Assembly: GCA_964616855.1 (NCBI GenBank)
Contig: CAZTUJ010000001.1
Span: 384,301-448,300, forward strand
Length of the DNA: 64,000 nt
Direction of reading: 5' to 3'
DNA from: an uncultured Gammaproteobacteria bacterium
GTDB lineage: Bacteria; Patescibacteriota; Patescibacteriia; Patescibacteriales; UBA12465
Shown one piece after another: positions 3,854 through 61,416 of this stretch. The notes under the pieces were generated by a model that was not told the origin of the DNA, searched no databases, and saw only the letters and a list, made by a program, of their open reading frames with translations. The position numbers and the translations under genes were made by a program. The stretch's first letter is position 1. Every line of letters starts with the position of its first letter.

Positions 3854-4624
3854 ATGGGAAAAATCATTGCCGTTGTCAATCAAAAAGGGGGTGTGGGTAA
3901 GACCACAACCACCGTCAATTTAGGAGCTTATCTGGCTGAAGCCGGCAAGGAGGTCTTGCTGGTTGATTTAGATCCGCAAGCTAATGCTACTTCGGGCTTA
4001 GGTATTGAGCATCAGAAATTAGAAGCCGGCGTCTATGAGGCTCTCTTAGGGCAAAAACCGCTCTATTCTGTGATTAAGCGTACCGTTCAGCCTCGCTACA
4101 GCGTAGCCCCGGCCACAGTGGCCTTAGCGGGCGCAGGAATTGAGATGGTGGCTTTAGAAAACCGGGAATTTCGCTTAGCTTTGATGTTGGAAGAATTGCG
4201 TTCCGAATATGATTATATTATCGTTGACGGCCCTCCATCTTTAGGCTTGCTTACCGTTAACAGTCTAGTAGCCGCTGATGAAGTCTTAATTCCCATCCAA
4301 AGTGAATATTATGCCTTAGAAGGCCTGGGACAATTATTAGAAACAGTACAGCTAGTACGAGATAATCTCAAACCGTCTTTAAATATCATGGGCGCGGTGG
4401 TGACAATGTTTGACCGCCGCAATAAACTATCCGGGGCTGTTTTAGAAGAATTGAAGAAATTTTTTCCGGGTAAAATTTTTGATTCGGTCATTCCTAGAAG
4501 TGTAAAATTAGCGGAGGCTCCTAGTTATGGTCGCAGTATTCTCCATTATGATCCTAAGTCTAATGGGGCTAAGGCTTATGAAAGTTTAGCTCAAGAGGTG
4601 ATAGCTCTAGAAAAGGGTGTTTAG
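3854..4624 (+). CDS. parA: Chromosome partitioning ATPase ParA/Soj
   Basis: It has the deviant Walker A motif KGGVGKTT. I chose the ATG at 3854 (MGKIIAVVNQKGG) because the track's 3695 start would overlap tRNA-Leu and the promoters. Confidence 0.9.
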   Translation: MGKIIAVVNQKGGVGKTTTTVNLGAYLAEAGKEVLLVDLDPQANATSGLGIEHQKLEAGVYEALLGQKPLYSVIKRTVQPRYSVAPATVALAGAGIEMVALENREFRLALMLEELRSEYDYIIVDGPPSLGLLTVNSLVAADEVLIPIQSEYYALEGLGQLLETVQLVRDNLKPSLNIMGAVVTMFDRRNKLSGAVLEELKKFFPGKIFDSVIPRSVKLAEAPSYGRSILHYDPKSNGAKAYESLAQEVIALEKGV

Positions 4625-4626
4625 TT

Positions 4627-5232
4627 ATGAAAGATATTCTTATTGCCACTGCTAATCGCGGTAAAGCTCGGGAAATTGAAGTTATTTTTCAAGGCTCTTC
4701 TTTTCGTCCGCATTTTTTGTATGAATACCCAGATTTACAGAAGATTAACATTCAGGAAAACGCCCAGAGTTTTGAGGGTAATGCTTTAATTAAAGCCTTG
4801 TTAATCGGTCAGGCTTCCGGCATGATTACTTTAGCCGATGATAGCGGCATCTGCGTTGAGGCTTTAGAAGGGGCGCCAGGAGTACTCTCAGCTCGTTATT
4901 CGGAAGAAAGAACGGATGCAGCTAATAATCAAAAGTTGTTATTGGCTTTAGCCGGAATACCAACAGAAAAGCGTAATTGCCATTATCATTGCAGTGTGGC
5001 GATTTATAATCCCCTTGATAATTTTGTGGCTACTACCGTTGGCGTTTGGCAGGGAAGAGTGGCGGAGAAAGAGAGTGGTGACCGCAGTTTTGGTTACGCC
5101 CCGATTTTTTTGGCTGCAGAATTTAATTACGAAAAAAGTAATGCCGAGTGCGACCCGGAAGAGTTAACCGCTATCAATCACCGGGGCAGGGCTTTCCGGG
5201 GGGCTTTAGAAATTTTGCAAGAAAAATATTAA
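4627..5232 (+). CDS. rdgB: Non-canonical purine NTP pyrophosphatase (RdgB/HAM1 family)
   Basis: 201 aa. ATANRGKAREI, DDSGICVEAL and GAPGV...SARY motifs fit the family. Confidence 0.85.
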   Translation: MKDILIATANRGKAREIEVIFQGSSFRPHFLYEYPDLQKINIQENAQSFEGNALIKALLIGQASGMITLADDSGICVEALEGAPGVLSARYSEERTDAANNQKLLLALAGIPTEKRNCHYHCSVAIYNPLDNFVATTVGVWQGRVAEKESGDRSFGYAPIFLAAEFNYEKSNAECDPEELTAINHRGRAFRGALEILQEKY

Positions 5233-19101: not shown

Positions 19102-20532
19102 ATGAATAAAGTCGCTAATATTGCGAAAAATACTTCTTACTTGACTCTTGCTCTGATCATTCAAAAAGTGATCTCTTTTTCTTATTTTATCCTTTTGGCT
19201 CGTTTTTTGGGTTTAGAAGTGCTCGGTCAGTATTATACCGCCATCTCTTTTACCACTATTTTTGCCATTTTTATTGATTTAGGTTTTGCTAGTGCTTTAA
19301 CTAGAGAGGTGGCCAAAGATCAGACCAGGGCCGCCCAGTGGCTGCGGACGGTTTTGTCTTTAAAGTTATGGTTAGCGGCGGGCACGGTCATTTTGGCTTT
19401 AGGCGTAGCCGGTTTTGCTTATGACCGCTTTCTTTTACTCTTAATTAGTATTTCCGTCTTATCGATGGTGCTCGATTCTTTTACTAATACTTTTTTTGCA
19501 GTTGCCCGCGGTTTTTATAATTTAAAGTATGAAAGTATTGCTGCGGTTATTTTCCAATTAATTGTTCTGGCCCTGGGTGTTTTAGCTATGTTTCTGGTCT
19601 GGCCCTTGCCGGCTATGCTTGGCATCTTGGTGGCGGCGAGTCTGTTTAACTTCATTTATTCTGCCAATATTGTTAAACGACGCCTACAATTATCCATTCG
19701 GCCGGCGTTAAATAGGGAGATGGCGAAGCGCATTTTTAATATTAGTTGGCCCTTTGCTTTATATAATATTTTCCAGCGCTTGTTTACTTATCTCGATTCT
19801 TTGTTACTCGGCTTTATTGCCGGCTATGGTCAAGTTGGTCTTTATCAAATTGCTTTTAAGCTAATCTTTGCTTTGCAATTTTTACCAATGGCCTTTACCG
19901 CCTCTCTGTATCCGGCGATGAGCGCTTATTGGTTGAATAATAAAGAACAGTTGCGGGTTTCTTTTGAAAGGGCTTTAAATTATTTACTCATTATTTCTTT
20001 GCCCATTATTTTTGGTATTTTTGCTTTAGCTGATAAGGTTTTGCCTTTGTTTAAAGCCGGTCCCGAAGCAATCTGGCCTTTGCGTGTTTCTATCCTGGCC
20101 ATCTTTTTTATTTTTTTAAATTTCCCCGTCGGTTCACTTTTAAATGCTTGTGATCGCCAGCGGCGCAATACCTTAAATATGGCGATTGTGACTGTTTTTA
20201 GTGTGGGCCTGAACCTGCTCCTGATTCCACGCTGGCAGGCCTTAGGGGCGAGCGTGACGGTTTTAGCTAGCAATGCCTTGATGTTTATCCTTGGCCTCCT
20301 TTCTATTCGGGGTTTAATTATTTATCGTCCGGCTAAGAATCTTAAAGTTTTAGCTCAAGCCCTTTTAGCGGCCACTTTAATGGCCTTGGTAATTTTCTGG
20401 GGGAAACAGCAATTTCATATTTTTATTGCCGTGATTGGCGGCGGCTTAATTTATTTTGTTGCTCTTTTTGCACTTGGTGGCCTCAAGAAGGCCGATATTA
20501 CTAGCGTCATTACTTCTTTCCGGCGCTCTTAA
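19102..20532 (+). CDS. Polysaccharide/oligosaccharide flippase (MOP/Wzx-type polysaccharide biosynthesis protein)
   Basis: 476 aa with about 12-14 TM segments. It sits at the head of a glycosyltransferase cluster. Confidence 0.75.
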   Translation: MNKVANIAKNTSYLTLALIIQKVISFSYFILLARFLGLEVLGQYYTAISFTTIFAIFIDLGFASALTREVAKDQTRAAQWLRTVLSLKLWLAAGTVILALGVAGFAYDRFLLLLISISVLSMVLDSFTNTFFAVARGFYNLKYESIAAVIFQLIVLALGVLAMFLVWPLPAMLGILVAASLFNFIYSANIVKRRLQLSIRPALNREMAKRIFNISWPFALYNIFQRLFTYLDSLLLGFIAGYGQVGLYQIAFKLIFALQFLPMAFTASLYPAMSAYWLNNKEQLRVSFERALNYLLIISLPIIFGIFALADKVLPLFKAGPEAIWPLRVSILAIFFIFLNFPVGSLLNACDRQRRNTLNMAIVTVFSVGLNLLLIPRWQALGASVTVLASNALMFILGLLSIRGLIIYRPAKNLKVLAQALLAATLMALVIFWGKQQFHIFIAVIGGGLIYFVALFALGGLKKADITSVITSFRRS

Positions 20533-20535
20533 ATT

Positions 20536-21624
20536 ATGAAACTACTACTTTGCACTTTAGAATATCCTCCCCAAATTGGCGGTGTTGCTAGTTACTATTA
20601 TAATTTAATCTCAGCTTGGCCAAAGGCTGATTCTTGGCGAGTTTTGGATAATAGCGAAAAAAAGCTTTGTGCGGTCTCTGGGCCTTGGCCTTGGCAAAGA
20701 GCTTTTGCCGCTCTCTGGAAAGAGTTGCAGGCAAATCCAGCCGATTTAGTTTTTATCGGGCAAATTTTGCCTTTAGGGACCGTGGCCTTGCTTTTAAATA
20801 TCATTAAACCCTTTACTTTCGGTCTTTTTTTACATGGCATGGATTTAAGTTTTGCTTTAAAATCACCACGCAAGCGTTTTTTAGCTAGGCTGATTTTAAA
20901 GAAAGCAAAAATAATAGTTTGTGCTAATTCTCGAGTCCAGGAAATTTTATTAGATTTTTTGCCTGATTTAAAAGACAAGGTAATGATTTTACATCCTGGA
21001 GCCACAGTTGGAGAAACTAATGTTGAGGTTAAAGCGGAATTGGAGAATCGCTATCATTTAGCCGGAAAAAAGATCATCTTTTCCCTTGGCCGTTTGGTAA
21101 AACGCAAAGGCTTCGATCAGGTGATTAAATCTTTGGAAAAAGTGTCGGTTAATCCTTGGCTTTATTTATTAGCTGGTGATGGGCCGGAAAGTGAATCTTT
21201 ACGCGCTTTAGCCGCTCAAAGTTCGATATCGGACAAAGTTATCTTTACAGGGGCTCTCAGTGAAGAGGAGAAATGGTCTTGTTTGGATTTATGTGATATA
21301 TTTATAACGACTTCTCGGGATTTAGATGGAGATTTTGAAGGTTTCGGTATTGTTTATCTGGAAGCGAATTTGATGGCCAAACCGGTAATTGCCGGCAATA
21401 GTGGTGGGGTCGCCGATGCAGTGATCAATAATCTTAATGGTCTTTTGGTTAATCCCGAAGACGCTGGTGAGATTGCCGCCGCCATTACTAAATTATTACA
21501 AAATCCAGCTGAAGCTTCTCGACTAGGTTTAGCGGGCAGGGAAAGGGCGGAAAAAGATTTTTCTTGGCCCAGCCAAGCGGCTAAACTTGCCGCCAGCCTA
21601 AAAGAAAGAATTAGTAGTATTTAA
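20536..21624 (+). CDS. Glycosyltransferase family 1
   Basis: FEGFGIVYLEANLMAKPVIAGNSGG motif, 362 aa. Confidence 0.85.
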   Translation: MKLLLCTLEYPPQIGGVASYYYNLISAWPKADSWRVLDNSEKKLCAVSGPWPWQRAFAALWKELQANPADLVFIGQILPLGTVALLLNIIKPFTFGLFLHGMDLSFALKSPRKRFLARLILKKAKIIVCANSRVQEILLDFLPDLKDKVMILHPGATVGETNVEVKAELENRYHLAGKKIIFSLGRLVKRKGFDQVIKSLEKVSVNPWLYLLAGDGPESESLRALAAQSSISDKVIFTGALSEEEKWSCLDLCDIFITTSRDLDGDFEGFGIVYLEANLMAKPVIAGNSGGVADAVINNLNGLLVNPEDAGEIAAAITKLLQNPAEASRLGLAGRERAEKDFSWPSQAAKLAASLKERISSI

Positions 21625-26368: not shown

Positions 26369-26439
26369 TCGGGGATCGTCTAATGGTAGGACAACAGGTT
26401 CTGGTCCTGTTTATCGGGGTTCGAATCCCTGTCCCCGAG
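26369..26439 (+). tRNA. tRNA-Gln (anticodon CTG); CCA not encoded
   Basis: Hand fold: the acceptor is TCGGGGA/TCCCCGA with U1-A72, as is typical for tRNA-Gln. The anticodon stem ACAGG/CCTGT carries the loop TTCTGGT. The T-arm is CGGGG-TTCGAAT-CCCTG. Confidence 0.85.
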
Positions 26440-26586
26440 CTAAACACGAAAACAGGTTTAAAAAGCCTGTTTTCGTTTTAATATTAGATATATATTAAGT
26501 TTCAAAGCGGTTCTAACATTTTTGTGGTATTTATAGTATTTTTTAGAAAAACCTTTATTTTATTGGTCCATATTGGTTAGAATCCA
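26435..26586 (+). repeat. Direct repeat copy A (tRNA-Gln 3' end, terminator hairpin and ~100 nt of spacer)
   Basis: Hand alignment to 31574-31735 gives 49/54 identical in the first block. Overall identity is about 83% over ~152 aligned nt, with one 10-nt indel. Confidence 0.8.
26447..26480 (+). terminator. Intrinsic terminator after tRNA-Gln
   Basis: CGAAAACAGG-(9-nt loop)-CCTGTTTTCG followed by TTTT. Confidence 0.75.
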
Positions 26587-31507: not shown

Positions 31508-31573
31508 TAAGGGAGAGGACTCTAAACGACTCAGCGTTATTTATTCAAAACCGTTCCAACTATATCCCAAACT

Positions 31574-31735
31574 CCGAGCCAAACATGAAAACAGGTTTTA
31601 AAAGCCTATTTTTGTTTTAATATTAGACACATTTTAAGTTCCAAAGTGGTTCTAACTATTTTATGATATTTGAGATAATTTATAGTAATCTTTAGAAAAG
31701 TCCCGATTTTATTGGTTTATATTGGTTCGAACCAA
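31574..31735 (+). repeat. Direct repeat copy B (degenerate tRNA-Gln 3' end, weakened hairpin and spacer)
   Basis: Aligns to 26435-26586. Upstream, GTTCCAACTATATCCC resembles the tRNA T-arm GGTTCGAATCCC. Confidence 0.8.
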
Positions 31736-54283: not shown

Positions 54284-54541
54284 ATGAGAAAAAAGCGAAA
54301 AAATAAAATTAAGATTATTGGCTTCATCGAAAAAATGGAGACAAAGAGATTCTTTATCAGCCTGTTATTCCGCACGGTGCGCGGCCATTACTTTGAGCTT
54401 AAAATCAAGCAAAAAAAGAGAGGTTTACGCGACTTTAGCCATGAAATCGGTAAAGTAATTACCCAAAAGCAAAAAGTCCGTTTTGACGGACATTACATTG
54501 TGCCCATACCGGGGCCAATCCGAAGGGGAATGATGGCTTAA
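54284..54541 (+). CDS. Small basic hypothetical protein
   Basis: 85 aa. It has its own downstream terminator. No family was recognised. Confidence 0.4.
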   Translation: MRKKRKNKIKIIGFIEKMETKRFFISLLFRTVRGHYFELKIKQKKRGLRDFSHEIGKVITQKQKVRFDGHYIVPIPGPIRRGMMA

Positions 54542-54561
54542 TTTTAAAGACATTGAGCAGG

Positions 54562-54591
54562 GAAACCAGTCAGCAACGGCTGGTTTTTTTA
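54562..54591 (+). terminator. Intrinsic terminator
   Basis: AACCAG-(10-nt loop)-CTGGTT followed by TTTTT. Confidence 0.7.
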
Positions 54592-54704: not shown

Positions 54705-56648
54705 ATGCCCGGCATCTTTCAACTCCAATCTGAATTCGAGCCAGCCGGTGATCAGGCTCAGGCTATCAAAAAACTGCTTCAAGGCTTGGAGCAGGGTTTA
54801 TCGTATCAAACCCTCTTAGGAGTTACCGGTTCGGGTAAAACTTTTACGGCTGCTAATTTAATTGCTGCTTATAATAAACCGGCTTTAGTAATTGCCCCCA
54901 ATAAAGCTTTAGCCGCCCAGCTCTACCGTGAGTATAAAAACTTCTTTCCCAATAATGCTGTCCACTACTTTGTCTCTTACTATGACTACTACCAACCAGA
55001 AGCCTATCTACCTATCACCGATACCTATATCGACAAAGAAGCAATGATTAATGAAGAGATGGACAGACTGCGCCATGGCGCCACCTCAGCGCTCTTGAGC
55101 CGGCCCGATGTTATTATTGTTGCTTCCGTTTCTTGTATCTACAACTTGGGTGTGCCTTTAAATTACTTAGAGGCCTCGCTCCATTTAGAAAAAGGGAAGA
55201 CTATTACCCGAGCAGATTTAATTAGACAGCTAGTGGGGATGCAATTTGAAAGAGTTAACGGGGAAGTAAAGCGCGGACAATTTCGTGTCCGGGGCGATGC
55301 TTTTGAAATTCGACCGATGTCAGAAAATGTTGTTTATCGGGTGGACTTGGAAGCTCAAGCAGTTAAAGACTTATGTATTATTGATAACACCAGTAAAAAC
55401 ATCATTGATAATTTGGAGGAAATGGTTATTTTTCCGCCTAAACATTTTATTTCCACTCAACCCCAGATTGAACAAGCCTTAAAAAATATTCAGGAAGAAC
55501 TGCAGGATCGCTTAGCCCATTTCAAAGCTAATGGTTTGTACTTAGAAGCGGAAAGATTAGAGCGACGCACTCGCTACGACCTGGAAATGCTGCACACGCT
55601 CGGCTACTGCCATGGCATTGAAAACTATTCCCGCCAACTGTCAGGGAAGCTGGCCGGAGAAACGCCAGATGCACTTTTAAGCTATTTTCCTTGGAAAGAA
55701 GGTAAGCCCGACTTTCTCACCATTATTGATGAGTCCCATATCACTATTCCTCAAATTCGGGGCATGTATAACGGTGATCGCTCCCGCAAAAACACTCTCG
55801 TTCAGTATGGCTGGCGTCTACCCAGTGCTTTAGATAACCGCCCCTTAAAATTTACTGAGTTTCAAAAGCGAGTTGGCCCCGTAATCTTTACCACCGCCAC
55901 CCCCGGTGACTACGAAAAGGAAAATTCTCAACAAATAGCCGAGCAAATTATCCGACCAACTGGTCTAGTTGATCCGGAGATAGAAATCAGACCGGTATTT
56001 AACAAAGATACTAATTACAGTCAGATTAACGACATTATGGCCGAAGCGGAACGCTTAGCGGCTAAGAATGAAAGGGTAATCATTAATACCCTAACTAAAA
56101 AGCAAGCGGAAGATTTGAGCACCTTTCTTAATCAAAAAGGTCTAAAGGCTAATTATCTCCACTCTGATATTAAAACCTTTGAACGCACCGATATCCTTAA
56201 AGCTTTCCGGGAGGGGGCCTTTGATGTCCTTATCGGAGTCAATCTCTTACGTGAGGGCTTGGACTTACCGGAAGTAACTCTAGTCGCTATCTTAGACGCT
56301 GATCGTGAAGGCTTCCTGCGCAGCCAAACCTCCCTGATGCAAACAATGGGGCGCGCCGCTCGTAATGTTTCTGGAAAAATTATCCTCTATGCTGACAAAG
56401 AAACTGATTCCATGAAAAAAGCTATTGCCGAATCCCGCCGCCGTCGTGAAAAACAACTAGCCTATAACCAAAAACATAAAATTACGCCACAAACTGTTAT
56501 TAAAAAAATTGAAAGTCTGCTTGGCTTAGAAGAAGAAAGGGAAGGAATAGAAGAAAGACGACAAGAAAAAGAAAAAATTAAAAAAGAAAAATATGGAAAA
56601 CGAAAAACAACGACCGCTCGTCGGGGTGGGCGTGATGGTAAAAAATAA
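54705..56648 (+). CDS. uvrB: Excinuclease ABC subunit B; C-terminal UVR domain apparently replaced by a K/E/R-rich tail
   Basis: Walker A GVTGSGKT is present, with helicase motifs (DESH, LREGLDLPEV, QTMGRAARN). The tail [25 protein letters not shown] lacks the FE.AA..RD pattern. Confidence 0.95.
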   Translation: MPGIFQLQSEFEPAGDQAQAIKKLLQGLEQGLSYQTLLGVTGSGKTFTAANLIAAYNKPALVIAPNKALAAQLYREYKNFFPNNAVHYFVSYYDYYQPEAYLPITDTYIDKEAMINEEMDRLRHGATSALLSRPDVIIVASVSCIYNLGVPLNYLEASLHLEKGKTITRADLIRQLVGMQFERVNGEVKRGQFRVRGDAFEIRPMSENVVYRVDLEAQAVKDLCIIDNTSKNIIDNLEEMVIFPPKHFISTQPQIEQALKNIQEELQDRLAHFKANGLYLEAERLERRTRYDLEMLHTLGYCHGIENYSRQLSGKLAGETPDALLSYFPWKEGKPDFLTIIDESHITIPQIRGMYNGDRSRKNTLVQYGWRLPSALDNRPLKFTEFQKRVGPVIFTTATPGDYEKENSQQIAEQIIRPTGLVDPEIEIRPVFNKDTNYSQINDIMAEAERLAAKNERVIINTLTKKQAEDLSTFLNQKGLKANYLHSDIKTFERTDILKAFREGAFDVLIGVNLLREGLDLPEVTLVAILDADREGFLRSQTSLMQTMGRAARNVSGKIILYADKETDSMKKAIAESRRRREKQLAYNQKHKITPQTVIKKIESLLGLEEEREGIEERRQEKEKIKKEKYGKRKTTTARRGGRDGKK

Positions 56649-57027
56649 AAAAGGAGAAATCCTTTTAGGCCTACGTCGTTCTCCCCATGGCCAAGGCACT
56701 TGGAGTTTTCCAGGTGGCCACTTAGAATTTGGAGAAACTATGGCCGCCGCTGCTATCCGAGAGACTAAGGAAGAGACCGGCTTGGAGGTTTCAGAATTAG
56801 AGTTAGTTTCTTTAGCTGACGAAATGGGCAGTCTGGATAAAGGTAAACATTATGTCAATGTCGGCTTCTTGGCTCATTTTGTCTCCGGCGAACCAATGGT
56901 AACCGAGCCAGAAAAATGGGAAGGTTGGCAATGGTTTGATCCCGGGAAATTACCAGAACCAATTTTTGAAGGCACTTACTTAATGATTCAGCGCTACCAA
57001 GCCGGACAGCTTTATTGGAACCGATAA
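56593..57027 (+). CDS. Nudix hydrolase (MutT-like), canonical Nudix box
   Basis: [24 protein letters not shown]. The gene overlaps the uvrB 3' end by 56 nt in another frame. Confidence 0.85.
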
Positions 57028-57043
57028 AATTAAATAAACAAAC

Positions 57044-59584
57044 ATGCAAGATAAAATAATCATCCGTGGTGCGCGGATGCACAATTTAAAAAATATCAAC
57101 CTGGAAATACCGCACAACAGTCTTTCGGTTATTACCGGTGTTTCTGGTTCGGGTAAATCATCGCTGGCTTTTGATACAATTTTTGCCGAAGGACAGAGAC
57201 AATATGTGGAATCGCTTTCGCCCTATATGCGCCAATTTTTGGGCCAAAAAAAACCAGCGGATGTGGATGAAATTTTAGGCTTAGCCCCGGCTATTTCTAT
57301 TGACCAAAAAGCTTTATCCCACAACCCGCGCTCTACCGTTGGCACTCTTACCGAAATCCACGATTATCTACGCGTTCTCTACGCTCGCGTGGGCGAAGTT
57401 TTTTGTCCTCATTGTGGCATCAAGATTGAAAAGCTTACCCTGGAAGAAATGATTGATATTATTATTTCCCGCGGTAAAGAATACCAAGAAGAATATGCGG
57501 TAATTTTAAGTCCGGTGGTACGTGACCGCAAAGGCGAATACTACCAATTGCTCTATGACTACCTTAAACTCGGTTATGCCGAAGCTCGGGTCGATGGGGA
57601 AGATAAAAATCTGCGTGAACCGGTAAAACTGAATGCTAAAACTAAACATAATATTGATATTGTCATTGATAAAGTCATGCTTAGTGATGAGGGGCGCCTC
57701 TTTGAAGCGGTAGAAAATGCTTTACAATACAGCCAGGGCTTGGTGATTGTTAAATTTCAGAAACAAGAATTTCTGCTTTCTTCTAATTGGACCTGTCCCA
57801 ATGACAGTTTTTCTTTTCCGGAAGTAGAACCGCGTCTTTTTTCTTTTAACTCTCCCCACGGCGCTTGTCCCCAGTGTTCTGGTTTAGGTAAAATTGGTTT
57901 TTCCGCCGACAAATTTTGTCCCGAATGTCAGGGACAACGTCTCCGCCCGGAATCACTGTCGGTAAAAGTCAACGGCAAAAATATTGCCGATCTCAGCCAT
58001 TTAAGTATTGATAAAGCCTATGATTTCTTCTGGAAGTATTATCAAAAGATGAATAAAAGACAGCTGACAATTGCCGACAACGTCATGGGTCAAATTCTCA
58101 ACCGCTTAGAGTTTTTAAATAAAGTCGGCTTAAACTATCTCTCTCTCGATCGGGAAGCCGAAAGCCTCTCTGGTGGGGAAGCCCAACGCATCCGCCTGTC
58201 TTCACAAATTGGCTCCCAACTCTCCCGCACCCTCTATGTTCTAGACGAGCCGACGATTGGCCTGCATGAACGCGATACCGAGCGCTTAATCAAAACACTC
58301 GAAACTCTGCGCGATAAAAATAATACGGTGATTATCGTGGAACATGACGAACGGACAATTTTAGCTTCCGACTATCTCGTCGATCTTGGCCCTCTAGCTG
58401 GCGTCCACGGTGGCCAAATCGAAGCGATGGGGGAAACCTCTAAACTGCTTGCGGCTGAACAAAAAAAACCAGGAAGCCAGTCCTTGACCATGCAATATTT
58501 AGCGGGACATAAAGAAATTGCTATTCCTGAAAAACGCCGTAGCCAGAACCACGGTAGCCTCAAAATTATTGGCGCCAAAGTAAATAATTTAAAAAATCTT
58601 AAAGCGGAAATACCGCTTGGCCGCTTAGTCGGCATCAGCGGCGTTTCCGGTTCTGGAAAATCTTCCTTGCTCTACGATGTCCTCTATAAAAATCTATCTT
58701 ATATTAAAAACAATCCCGGCAAAAAAAATAAGCTCAGCGGGCTTGATGAGCTTAAAGGAGCGGAATATGTTAATAAAATTGTCGTGATTGATCAGTCGCC
58801 GATCGGTCGGACTCCTCGTTCTAATCCCGCTACCTATACCGGTATATTTACCCCCATCCGTGATTTTTATGCAGCCCTACCAGAAGCCAAAGAACGCGCC
58901 TACTCCATCTCCCGTTTTTCCTTTAATCGACCAGGTGGACGCTGTGAAGCCTGCGAGGGGGCTGGTTCTAACTTAATTGAAATGCATTTCTTGCCCGCAG
59001 TTTTAGTGGAGTGCGAAGTTTGCCGCGGTCGTCGTTTCAACCGCGAAACTTTACAGGTTAAATATAAAGGTAAAAATATTGCTGATGTCTTAGAAATGAC
59101 GATTGATGAAGCGATTGATTTATTTGATGGTAATTATTATATTACGGACAAACTCCGAGTTTTACAGTCAGTCGGCCTAGGTTATCTCAAGCTAGGACAA
59201 TCGGCTACCACCTTATCTGGAGGGGAAGCTCAGCGAGTAAAAATCGGCAAAGAACTGACTCATACCCTGGGTAAACGCACCCTCTATCTCTTAGATGAAC
59301 CGACCACCGGTCTTCACTATTATGATATCGATATGCTCTTAAATGTTTTAAATAAGCTGGTAGAGAAGGGAAATTCAGTCCTAGTCATAGAGCACAACCT
59401 GCACATGCTTAAATCCATGGACTATCTTTTAGATTTAGGTCCAGACGGCGGCGACGCTGGCGGCAAAATAGTGGCGGCTGGCACCCCCGAAGAAGTAGCT
59501 GCTAATCCTAAAAGCTTAACCGGACAATACTTAAAAAAACTGCTAAAAGGGCAGAAAAAAGAAAAAACTGGGAAGATTCTCTAA
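57044..59584 (+). CDS. uvrA: Excinuclease ABC subunit A, short form lacking the insertion domain
   Basis: Two ABC modules are present (GVSGSGKSS twice, LSGGE twice). The UvrB-binding region appears to be present. The second zinc module reads [23 protein letters not shown], with only about 10 aa where an insertion domain of about 100 aa normally sits. Confidence 0.95.
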
Positions 59585-59887
59585 AGTTGCCTTTAAAGTT
59601 TCTTACCCAGTTCCGGCGAAGCGTGCTCTTACCGAGCTTTATTTTAGCTAGGGGCCAAGAACAGAATGCAAACATTCATAGTTGTGGCGGTCAGCTACAA
59701 GTCGCTTCTTTTTCTCCTTGCGGAGGCTCTTTGTAATTTTGGGGGCGGGTTTAGGCAAACTGATTATCACCATCTAATCAGACTGAGATACGCGAGGTGC
59801 GCCCTATTTACAAAAATCCAAAGAACAATTTGATGACGCAATCTTAGCAAGCTAATAATTTTTGTCAAGACTTAAGATTTTACCACC
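59585..59887. ncRNA. ORF-poor, comparatively GC-rich 300-nt spacer; candidate structured RNA or small-protein locus (unassigned)
   Basis: Local hairpins include GAATG-CAAA-CATTC, CTCC-TTGC-GGAG, CTGATTA-(8)-TAATCAG and a GGGCG/CGCCC closing stem. There is also a 55-aa ATG ORF at 59666-59833 (MQTFIVVAVSYKSLLFLLAEALCNFGGG...). Confidence 0.25.
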
Positions 59888-60211
59888 ATGAAAGACCAAA
59901 AAACTATCAACCCCAGCCCCTTTGCCAGCGCTGTTTACAAGCTAACCGGTCTCATTCCTTTGGGAAAAGTAGCTACTTATGGTCAAATTGCTCGGAAGAT
60001 GGGAAAACCAAAGGCCGCTCGTGCTGTTGGCCAAGCTTTACACTGCAATCCCCTTGCCCCCAAAGTTCCTTGTCACCGAGTTGTCCAAAGTAATGGAGAC
60101 TTAGGTGGTTTTGCCGGAGGATTAAAAAAGAAAACAATTCTCTTAAGACAGGAGGGAATAGTAATAAAAGACAATCGCCTTGATTTGAATAAATATCAAG
60201 CCAAACTATAA
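59888..60211 (+). CDS. Single-domain MGMT-family protein (O6-alkylguanine alkyltransferase C-terminal/DNA-binding domain only; active-site Cys retained)
   Basis: 107 aa with the VPCHRVV motif. The N-terminal Ada/Ogt domain is absent. Confidence 0.85.
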   Translation: MKDQKTINPSPFASAVYKLTGLIPLGKVATYGQIARKMGKPKAARAVGQALHCNPLAPKVPCHRVVQSNGDLGGFAGGLKKKTILLRQEGIVIKDNRLDLNKYQAKL

Positions 60212-60213
60212 GC

Positions 60214-61416
60214 ATGCCTCATCCGCTGAAAAACTTATTAAAAGAAATTCCGAAAACGCCCGGCGTCTATTTTTGGTATGGGGCGAATAAAGAAATTTTG
60301 TATGTGGGCAGGGCAGTAAATTTAAAAAATCGGCTCAGCCAATATTTTCAAAAAAACATTGATAGCCGTATTGCCGAGATGGTAGCCCAAGCAACTGACT
60401 TAAAATTCACCACCTGCGAGAGCTTATTGGAAGCAATTATCTTAGAAGCCAGTAACATTAAAAAATACTGGCCCAAATATAACATTGTTGACCGTGATGA
60501 TCGGTCTTTTATCTATATTGCCATTAATAGCAAAGAGGAATATCCGCGGCCGATTATTATCCGGGGGCAAGATTTGAAAAAATTTCCTTCCCGCGCCTAT
60601 CATCTCTTTGGCCCCTATCAATCATATTATTTAATGAATTCGGCTTTACGACTGTTGCGTCGAATTTTTCCCTACAGCACTTGTACTCCTAAGAGTGGTA
60701 AGGCTTGTTTTGACTACCAAATTGGTCTTTGCCCGGGCGCCTGTATTACCAGCATCAGCCCGACCGCTTACAAAAAAAATATTCGCAATCTCATTCTCCT
60801 CTTAAAGGGAGAACGCCAACGCCTATTACAGAAACTAGAGAAAGAAAATCCAGAACAAGCTAGGGCTTTACGCCATCTACAAGAAGTCTCGCTGCTGGGC
60901 CGCGAAAATGATCTCAATCAAAGCCGTCTCCAGCGTATTGAAGGCTATGATATTTCCCACTTCCAGGGTAAAGAAGCTTACGCCTCGATGGTGGTTTTTA
61001 GTAACGGCGAAAAACAAAATTCCGCTTATCGACTCTTTAAAATTAAAGAAGCGCCCGCCGGTGACGATGAACGCGCCCTTTTAGAGACTCTACTAAGAAG
61101 ATTTCAGCACGCCGACTGGCCTCGTCCAGAAATGATTATGATTGACGGCGGCAGCCCCCAAATCAGCTTCCTGACCAGGGAATTAGCCAAACATAATATT
61201 GTCCTCCCCTTAGTTGGTATCTCTAAATTCGGCGGCGATCGCTTAGTTTTCCCTAAGGGGGTAAAGAAAAACTTTAAAGATTTAGCTGCCGTTTTAAAAC
61301 CAACCCTCCTCCAAGTTAGGGAAGAAGCTCATCGCTTTGCTAATTATGGCCGCAAACGCGGCGCTAAAAAAAGCGCTTTTCCGCTTGACAATAAGAGGAA
61401 ATCTGCTAATATATAA
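60214..61416 (+). CDS. uvrC: Excinuclease ABC subunit C, short form (GIY-YIG plus RNase H-like domain; no (HhH)2, UVR domain not recognisable)
   Basis: The GIY-YIG domain is GVYFWYG...ILYVGRA.NLKNRL. RIEGYDISH, MIDGG and REEAHRFA are present. The protein ends at 400 aa, where canonical UvrC continues for about 100 aa. Confidence 0.85.
   Translation: MPHPLKNLLKEIPKTPGVYFWYGANKEILYVGRAVNLKNRLSQYFQKNIDSRIAEMVAQATDLKFTTCESLLEAIILEASNIKKYWPKYNIVDRDDRSFIYIAINSKEEYPRPIIIRGQDLKKFPSRAYHLFGPYQSYYLMNSALRLLRRIFPYSTCTPKSGKACFDYQIGLCPGACITSISPTAYKKNIRNLILLLKGERQRLLQKLEKENPEQARALRHLQEVSLLGRENDLNQSRLQRIEGYDISHFQGKEAYASMVVFSNGEKQNSAYRLFKIKEAPAGDDERALLETLLRRFQHADWPRPEMIMIDGGSPQISFLTRELAKHNIVLPLVGISKFGGDRLVFPKGVKKNFKDLAAVLKPTLLQVREEAHRFANYGRKRGAKKSAFPLDNKRKSANI

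Follow-up and report, generated by a model that had tools for sequence, protein, structure and literature searches.

The closest described relatives of the genes analyzed here are the canonical class I UvrABC proteins of nucleotide excision repair (NER), found in E. coli, Bacillus, Thermotoga, Deinococcus and Mycobacterium. Textbook domain requirements for this pathway come from a small number of model species, and the recruitment and licensing of UvrC constitute its least understood step. We analyzed a 64-kb stretch of DNA (contig CAZTUJ010000001.1 of assembly GCA_964616855.1, positions 384,301 to 448,300 of the forward strand; hereafter the window) in which the same three proteins, as judged by equivalog hidden Markov models (HMMs), are encoded close together and in shortened form. 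Judging from the sequences, we consider it likely that this locus is a UvrABC operon that still works in stripped-down form, and that it is typical of much of the Patescibacteria. Literature searches on natural UvrA proteins without the insertion domain, and on NER among Patescibacteria and candidate phyla radiation bacteria, returned nothing relevant; this natural minimal variant of bacterial NER is real and apparently undescribed.

In canonical systems, domain 4 exerts autoinhibition on UvrB, and 3' incision depends on the contact that this domain makes with UvrC (PMC7835731). In UvrC of D. radiodurans, the RNase H1 domain is an inactive platform packed on the GIY-YIG site, and the helix-hairpin-helix domain, (HhH)2, is packed on the RNase H2 site, which yields a closed conformation; it has been proposed that the 3' nuclease is released when UvrB binds the UVR helices, and the contact with UvrB is required for 3', not 5', incision (PMC10085695). 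UvrC's RNase H2 domain adds to UvrB binding, and D. radiodurans UvrC from which (HhH)2 has been removed still makes both incisions, the 5' cut being weaker (PMC10085695). For UvrA, removal of the insertion domain in E. coli or B. stearothermophilus still allows incision of short damaged duplexes; undamaged DNA is poorly discriminated on plasmids, and repair coupled to Mfd suffers less (PMC3025350). A cryo-electron microscopy (cryo-EM) study from 2025 called the same domain essential for DNA coordination (PMC11985968).

Domain content of the clustered Uvr proteins

Every catalytic or core module is kept in the three proteins encoded in the window: the ATPase modules and the UvrB-binding domain of UvrA, the helicase core and the UvrA-binding domain of UvrB, and the GIY-YIG nuclease, Cys4 cluster and RNase H nuclease with its DDH triad in UvrC. 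Five modules with accessory or regulatory roles are gone, namely the insertion domain of UvrA, the linker and domain 4 of UvrB (counted as one module), and, from UvrC, the tip of the UVR hairpin, the RNase H1 domain and (HhH)2. Pfam matches were read at E<=1, and the same scan, applied to the E. coli proteins as a positive control, found UVR in both UvrB and UvrC, as well as PF22920 and the HhH families in UvrC. Two sets of relatives were used for comparison: set 1 consists of 80 loci from species-representative genomes, whose UvrCs are 56-97% identical to that of the window, and set 2 of 80 metagenome loci fetched with a profile of UVR-positive short UvrCs. A UVR HMM was also built from these UVR-positive short UvrCs and applied to every UvrB and UvrC in both sets.

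UvrA was identified by NCBIfam model NF001503 (1189.1 bits, cut-off 1147). Both of its ABC modules are present, with ABC_tran matching in four stretches and the PDB alignment spanning both modules, as is the UvrB-binding domain (PF17760, residues 132-239, 82.3 bits). The insertion domain PF17755 was not found in the Pfam scan at E<=1, and approximately 115 residues are absent relative to 9gxk and 2r6f, the alignment jumping from around residue 305 to residue 422 of chain 9gxk. A sequence-only reading of this DNA, made before our analysis, had already described the domain as missing, and had counted 15 residues between the Cys pairs of the second zinc module (Zn2), where we measured 13. This spacer is 12-13 residues long in 66/66 set-1 orthologs, and reaches up to 126-138 residues in domain-bearing UvrAs. 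The CxxC pairs of Zn2 and Zn3 are in place, and the second half of Zn1 (UvrA residues ~250-253) reads C-x2-D rather than C-x2-C. Across loci L001-L166, the Asp-containing version occurs in 81 of 82 UvrAs without the insertion domain, and the Cys is retained in 9 of 13 with it. Zn1 may bind zinc through a Cys3Asp site, or may have degenerated in connection with the loss of the insertion domain.

UvrB scores 913.6 bits with its NCBIfam equivalog (cut-off 743) and retains, by Pfam, the helicase core, the UvrA-interaction domain (UvrB_inter, PF17757, residues 159-248), Helicase_C (PF00271) and PF12344 (residues 561-602). The UVR family PF02151 was not found in it at E<=1, in a scan that gives 29 bits for E. 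coli UvrB, and the custom UVR HMM yielded no match, compared with 31 bits for the E. coli protein. The PDB alignment ends at residue 609, which corresponds to residue 599 of 661 in chain 9gy7; the linker and UVR domain are missing. The protein ends instead in a K/E/R-rich tail without a UVR domain, as the sequence-only reading had it. Inspection of ortholog C-termini showed that the basic tail is confined to the subclade of the window and a few others; most relatives end at residue 611, right after PF12344.

The identification of UvrC is a bare pass, with 287.2 bits for the NCBIfam equivalog against a cut-off of 285.45, a margin of less than 2 bits. NCBI labels the short UvrCs (that of the window, P0010, P0015, P0129 and others) as 'GIY-YIG nuclease family protein'; with this naming and the bare pass of the UvrC model, reconstructions based on genomes may wrongly score NER as incomplete in the candidate phyla radiation, and automated annotation may under-call it in Patescibacteria. 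In addition, DUF7508 (PF24348), a family with no assigned function, matches 24/116 short-UvrC proteins (alignments A2 and A3; P0121-P0270).

Between the two nuclease domains, UvrC carries a Cys4 cluster whose residues are Fe-S ligands in canonical UvrC (PMC10085695), and it further retains the beta motif and a reduced helical bundle. PF02151 was not found in the protein at E<=1, and the UVR HMM gives 5.8 bits, versus 36 for E. coli UvrC. In the alignment with E. coli UvrC, about 160 columns are absent, spanning the UVR hairpin tip and the whole of RNase H1; deletion of the UvrB-binding tip leaves a 20-residue remnant, ...LLQKLEKENP-EQARALRHLQEV..., which folds as two short helices in an AlphaFold2 (AF2) model. 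This model has a mean predicted local distance difference test (pLDDT) score of 83.7, and a predicted template modelling (pTM) score of 0.59, at which the arrangement of domains relative to each other is unreliable. The central, inactive RNase H1 domain of ~116 residues (PF22920, residues 251-368 in E. coli) was not found at E<=1, and neither were HHH, HHH_5 or HHH_3, the last group being detected by the same scan in E. coli UvrC. In the alignment with chain 2nrt, UvrC reaches position 167 of 220 and ends ahead of the (HhH)2 domain, and in orthologs the tail beyond the last helix has a median length of 15 residues and a net charge of +6. The sequence-only reading had recognized the GIY-YIG and RNase H-like regions and the absence of (HhH)2, all of which stand; the UVR segment, which it had called shortened, is a helical stub, and the loss of the whole RNase H1 domain is an addition.

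Distribution, co-loss and a candidate mode of incision

The cluster and its truncations, first treated as a feature of one genome, are a lineage-wide trait of a large part of Patescibacteria. In 67/68 set-1 loci with enough sequence, uvrA precedes uvrC on the same strand, and the complete uvrB-uvrA-uvrC trio is found in 59 of 62 related loci, all from distinct species. Set-1 UvrB is usually 611 residues long, UvrA 830-872 and UvrC 384-445. The same cluster appears on four contigs for which independent precomputed Pfam annotation is available (Pacebacteria-like, Azambacteria, Magasanikbacteria and Harrisonbacteria), with UvrB of 608-661 residues without PF02151, UvrA of 832-855 residues without PF17755 and UvrC of 387-431 residues. 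Cluster and truncations are thus conserved in four further named phyla of Patescibacteria as well. The two outcomes that had been named as refuting the sequence-only reading, intact UVR domains in both UvrB and UvrC or a cluster not conserved in relatives, were not obtained.

An exhaustive search of 1.84 billion cluster representatives, from which the top 150 clusters at 50% identity were taken, showed that UvrC is short (380-470 residues) in 115 of them. Pfam detected HhH or PF22920 in 0/116 short UvrCs (these 115 and that of the window), and UVR is retained in 92/116 (72/83 and 20/33). Since short UvrC is common and mostly bears UVR, the loss of UVR is a further step. One short UvrC, P0129, was considered as an independent case of UVR loss and rejected: a whole-database search seeded with it listed 120 matches, of which the 118 that were scored are all UVR-less by the UVR HMM, and these relatives belong to the same broad UVR-less group, P0129-type proteins representing a further reduction of the stub. 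Names among the matches listed include Pacebacteria, Azambacteria, Magasanikbacteria, Harrisonbacteria and Minisyncoccota.

The status of UVR is concordant between UvrB and UvrC in 84/84 paired loci, being absent from both in 64, present in both in 20 and discordant in none. The proposed joint loss of the interaction domains from the two proteins is therefore strongly backed, and the UVR domains behave as a co-evolving pair, of which a locus has both or neither. One locus of a distant lineage, L116, is probably a second, independent co-loss, and the only good candidate for one; its UvrC is 29% identical to that of the window and differs from it in the segment that lacks UVR, and in its UvrB nothing follows PF12344. 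None of the 70 set-1 UvrAs has the insertion domain; in set 2 the domain is absent from 18 and present in 14, which makes its loss wider than that of UVR and independent of it. In a neighbour-joining tree of UvrA, the outermost lineages have both insertion domain and UVR, the next group in lacks the insertion domain only, and the innermost is one clade without either, which includes the window. The losses are nested, short UvrC being the most widespread, followed by UvrA without insertion domain and then by joint UVR loss.

Reductive evolution is typical of this group and domains held essential in model systems are absent, so that the short genes could be viewed as decaying or repurposed remnants that no longer take part in excision. 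The DDH triad motifs are present in 78/78 set-1 UvrCs, however, and the Cys4 cluster in 77/78. In comparison with the closest relative, the ratio of nonsynonymous to synonymous substitution rates (dN/dS) of uvrC is 0.026 at a dS of 0.62, and uvrA and uvrB have proportions of nonsynonymous differences (pN) of 0.07-0.11 versus ~0.75 for synonymous ones (pS), values that point to strong purifying selection on the uvr genes. With catalytic residues invariant over orthologs of 56-97% identity, and a gene order maintained over several candidate phyla, decay or repurposing is extremely improbable.

It is also conceivable that the lost domains are supplied in trans, by second, canonical uvr genes or by small UVR or HhH proteins encoded elsewhere, and that the clustered genes are specialised paralogs. 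UvrA paralogs and the UvrC homologue Cho do occur in other bacteria, and our view was confined to <=10 kb on either side of uvrC in relatives and to 64 kb in the window. Within these limits, neither a second uvr copy nor a stand-alone UVR or HhH open reading frame (ORF) was seen in ~165 loci. Patescibacteria genomes are of ~1 Mb and paralog-poor; moreover, the equivalog scores of the short genes are those of NER proteins and not of UvrA2 or Cho, and the short genes are strongly constrained. We regard supply in trans as very unlikely.

A minimal but functional UvrABC operon would operate as follows. Lesion finding and verification by UvrA2-UvrB would persist, with poorer discrimination against undamaged DNA, which is perhaps tolerable in a genome of ~1 Mb or made up for by recruitment factors. 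With its autoinhibitory domain 4 gone, UvrB would be constitutively de-repressed. Short UvrC, devoid of RNase H1 and (HhH)2, would adopt an 'open' state; having lost both occluding domains, it would no longer need UvrB UVR to unlock its 3' nuclease, and the UVR-UVR contact would thereby become dispensable and be lost from UvrB and UvrC together. Recruitment of UvrC could proceed via secondary contacts with UvrB, for example through the RNase H domain, and via DNA, perhaps helped by the short basic tails. We infer this sequence of loss from the single-deletion literature and the nested order described above. A UVR-independent handover is well supported; the mechanism of licensing itself is our interpretation.

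Several points weigh against this model. Independent co-loss events are few (one large clade and L116), and the 84 loci are not 84 independent observations. Supply in trans was judged from the sequence around the loci. 3' incision in model systems depends on the UVR-UVR contact, and a pair that lacks UVR might be impaired or work differently. Finally, the 'open UvrC' step goes beyond what an AF2 model with a pTM of 0.59 can say about domain arrangement.

Neighbouring genes and genomic setting

All five genes of the cluster, in the order uvrB, Nudix, uvrA, MGMT-domain gene and uvrC, lie on the + strand between positions 54705 and 61416 of the window (Table 1). Coordinates, order and strand agree with the sequence-only reading, as does the 56-nt overlap that results from a Nudix ORF start inside uvrB under the longest-ORF rule; the uvrA/MGMT spacer, earlier given as 300 nt, is exactly 303 nt long.

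Table 1. Features of the uvr cluster and of its products, with positions in the window
Feature	Position	Strand	Size or residues	Basis or remark
Terminator-like hairpin upstream of uvrB	54559..54590	+	13-bp stem + T-run	Consensus scan only
uvrB	54705..56648	+	647 aa	NCBIfam, Pfam, PDB alignment
UvrB C-terminal K/E/R-rich basic tail	56532..56645	+	aa 610-647 (38 aa)	Replaces linker + UVR domain
Nudix hydrolase gene	56593..57027	+	144 aa	PF00293, 84.6 bits; intact Nudix box
uvrA	57044..59584	+	846 aa	NCBIfam, Pfam, PDB alignment, Zn motifs
UvrA Zn2 module, CPQC-13 aa-CPEC	57866..57928	+	aa 275-295	Exact site of missing ~115-aa insertion domain
Intergenic spacer uvrA/MGMT	59585..59887	.	303 nt	ORF listing
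Single-domain MGMT/AGT C-terminal-domain gene	59888..60211	+	107 aa	PF01035, 110 bits
uvrC	60214..61416	+	400 aa	NCBIfam, Pfam, PDB alignment, E. coli alignment, AF2
UvrC GIY-YIG 3'-incision nuclease	60262..60483	+	aa 17-90	PF01541; catalytic residues present (motif survey)
UvrC Cys4 cluster, C157-x7-C165-x7-C173-x3-C177	60682..60744	+		Invariant in alignment including E. coli
UvrC UVR stub, ...LLQKLEKENPEQARALRHLQ...	60814..60873	+	helices aa 201-211 + 213-220	E. coli alignment; AF2 pLDDT >90 here
UvrC RNase H-type 5'-incision nuclease, DDH triad	60922..61341	+	aa 237-376	PF08459, 109.6 bits; 2nrt alignment
UvrC short basic disordered C-terminal tail	61345..61413	+		pLDDT <50 at aa 389-400; replaces (HhH)2

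The MGMT protein matches PF01035 over residues 11-91 and TIGR00589 with 97.5 bits (cut-off 46.4). Between the end of the gene and the start codon of uvrC lie 2 nt. The PCHR motif (PCHRV) is located at residues 61-64, and the alignment with human O6-alkylguanine alkyltransferase (AGT; hAGT in residue numbering) pairs Y31, R45, N54, C62, H63, R64 and E89 with Y114, R128, N137, C145, H146, R147 and E172. The best alignment score is with M. tuberculosis Ogt (66 bits), followed by human AGT and Ada-C, and alkyltransferase-like proteins (ATLs) reach 46-52 bits. The N-terminal domain of Ogt is missing, as the protein matches residues 86-169 of the 171-position Ogt model NF007626 (85 bits, cut-off 192). 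No coding remnant of this domain lies upstream, the spacer being unconserved and MGMT abutting uvrA in other loci. A review states that AGT's N-terminal domain stabilises the protein and enhances its activity, and is not strictly required (PMC10779285). From these sequence features, the gene probably encodes an active single-domain O6-alkylguanine alkyltransferase and would be expressed together with uvrC. Of the earlier designation as MGMT/ATL-like, the absent N-terminal domain and the Cys in PCHRV hold; in other respects the protein resembles active AGTs in both residues and scores.

We then considered a role of the single-domain MGMT protein as an ATL-like partner of NER, which would recognize O6-alkylguanine, pass it to UvrA and UvrC and compensate for the lost domains. 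All 26 MGMT-domain genes in 160 loci are directly beside uvrC, 21 upstream (set 1) and 5 downstream (set 2); those upstream often extend 16-28 nt past the uvrC start. The ATL of E. coli is reported to bind UvrA and UvrC, not UvrB, and ATLs also lack the N-terminal domain (PMC10779285). Nevertheless, the gene is present at this site in only 21/77 related loci although the truncations are universal in the clade, which rules it out as the compensating factor. The catalytic residues of active AGTs are all retained, and active AGTs also give the higher scores; the change from Cys to Trp or Ala that defines ATLs is absent, and PCHR(V/I) was found in 25/25 linked MGMT genes with a locatable motif. 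The dN/dS value of the MGMT gene (~0.2 relative to the closest relative) points to a constraint ten times looser than on uvrC. In other genomes, unrelated genes occupy the same slot, so that position inside the cluster is no evidence of partnership. Some link between MGMT and uvrC is plausible, whereas the partnership put forward by the sequence-only reading is weak, and an ATL-like role in compensation is rather unlikely. A broader scenario, in which a large part of Patescibacteria combines differently licensed incision with a Cys-bearing single-domain alkyltransferase, coupled in translation to uvrC, that doubles, in a subset, as an ATL-type UvrA/UvrC adaptor and so links direct reversal to NER, also appears improbable.

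In one locus (L099:2400-3749), an MGMT domain with PCHRV downstream of uvrC is in frame with a complete release factor (PCRF and RF-1) within a 449-aa ORF, which may be a fusion or may reflect a missed stop codon or frameshift context.

The Nudix gene is found in 7/62 loci. Its best relatives in the PDB (4kyx, AtNUDX1 and NUDT15) are nucleotide-pool enzymes. A true MutT was rejected, with 42.1 bits for TIGR00586 (cut-off 97.9) and scores below all NCBIfam equivalog cut-offs; the MutT-like identity suggested earlier gives way to a generic Nudix protein. The gene appears to be a variable passenger of broad nucleotide-pool type. In 17 loci (L017:6560-7165 and 16 other set-1 loci), the slot between uvrB and uvrA holds a conserved gene for a CYTH-domain protein (PF01928) of ~193 residues. 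CYTH and Nudix proteins are both (poly)phosphate hydrolases, and the slot may favour nucleotide-phosphate enzymes, or this may equally be coincidence. An EamA-family transporter is encoded between uvrA and uvrC in 11 loci (L019:8773-9666 and 10 others), and a Gmad2/Germane protein at the same place in L165:9168-10004; the cluster tolerates insertions without being broken up. With CYTH, EamA, Gmad2/Germane and other genes filling the same slots elsewhere, slot genes were ruled out as partners.

The uvrA/MGMT spacer is not conserved, with a mean column identity of 32% over seven close relatives. It gave no structure signal, with a fold z-score of +0.73 and no Rfam match. A structured RNA and a decayed N-terminal domain of MGMT were both rejected on these grounds and in view of the loci in which MGMT directly abuts uvrA. 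The spacer probably carries a promoter for MGMT-uvrC. The hairpin upstream of uvrB is the probable end of the preceding transcription unit; just before it, at 54284-54541, lies an 85-aa ORF rich in Lys and Arg, which has no family match and may or may not be a real gene.

The cluster is flanked on its 3' side by rplJ and rplL and on its 5' side by corA and a conserved gene of 373 aa. Other genes of the window are ordinary chromosomal ones: dnaE, a tRNA 2-thiouridylase-type gene, ftsW and genes for a class II tRNA synthetase, a class I release factor and a malate/lactate dehydrogenase. The nearest relatives, labelled Candidatus Falkowbacteria or Patescibacteria, are genomes assembled from metagenomes. 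Elsewhere in the window, a direct repeat of 125 nt (80% identity; 26369-26549 and 31564-31688, copies 5.1 kb apart), whose first copy starts within the 3' end of tRNA-Gln(CTG), flanks the gene for a 1333-aa surface protein with immunoglobulin-like (He_PIG) domains. The repeat pair lies at the start of a low-GC stretch from ~26 to 48 kb (GC 0.32-0.38, compared with 0.40-0.44 elsewhere in the window), which may be an integration scar or island. Among the relatives, L164 carries a gene for a UDG-family glycosylase divergent from uvrB (4418-5011), and L166 a UvrD/PD-(D/E)XK helicase-nuclease ~8 kb downstream of the cluster (19375-21296).

Comparison with described systems

ATLs such as E. coli YbaZ (eATL), S. 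pombe Atl1 and V. parahaemolyticus vpAtl are single-domain proteins as well, with the same helix-turn-helix, Arg finger and Tyr as the MGMT protein of the window. They carry Trp or Ala at the Cys position (PWHRV or PAHRV) and have no transferase activity, whereas the window protein has PCHR with Cys, His and Glu. With Ogt, Ada-C and human AGT it shares the C-terminal catalytic and DNA-binding domain, and differs in lacking their N-terminal domain.

Cho (classes II and III) has both a GIY-YIG domain and a Cys-rich region in common with the UvrC of the window. According to Moolenaar et al. (2002), Cho reportedly acts without need for UvrB's C-terminal domain. Short UvrC differs from Cho in its active C-terminal RNase H nuclease, and scores 287 bits with the UvrC equivalog versus 68 bits with the Cho model NF007833, whose cut-off is 367. 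Cho of E. coli (class II) is devoid of a UVR motif and still incises at UvrB-DNA complexes (PMC10085695); for action at UvrB that is independent of UVR, it is the nearest parallel.

With canonical UvrABC, the locus shares the ATPase, helicase and nuclease cores, the UvrA-UvrB interaction domains, the Cys4 cluster and the DDH triad. By these cores the three proteins belong to the UvrA, UvrB and UvrC families, and each lacks at least one feature held to be standard. Canonical proteins differ in having the insertion domain, UvrB domain 4 and the hairpin tip, RNase H1 and (HhH)2 of UvrC, and a further difference is the Cys-x2-Asp in the second half of Zn1 here. All three uvr genes are clustered here, and in E. 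coli K-12 uvrB and uvrC are ~1.2 Mb apart.

The other close parallel is with engineered mutants, in which nearly the same segments are deleted as in the natural proteins, namely UvrA without the insertion domain (delta290-400 in E. coli; B. stearothermophilus), D. radiodurans UvrC without (HhH)2, and UvrB* or UvrB without domain 4. Mutant cores stay active, in incision of short substrates and in dual incision with weaker 5' cutting (PMC3025350, PMC10085695). With UvrB devoid of domain 4, canonical UvrC cannot make the 3' incision (PMC7835731), and the natural pair must therefore differ in the way UvrC is licensed. The natural pair also suggests that the UVR-UVR contact becomes dispensable when the self-blocking domains of UvrC are lost. 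The engineered deletions are single laboratory constructs, whereas here all of them coexist naturally under selection. The clade offers a natural deletion experiment, in which five NER modules were removed in a nested order from genes kept under strong selection in many lineages. Its typical trio amounts to ~1840 residues, versus ~2220 in E. coli, and could serve as a small test system for studying UvrC recruitment and licensing by biochemistry and cryo-EM.

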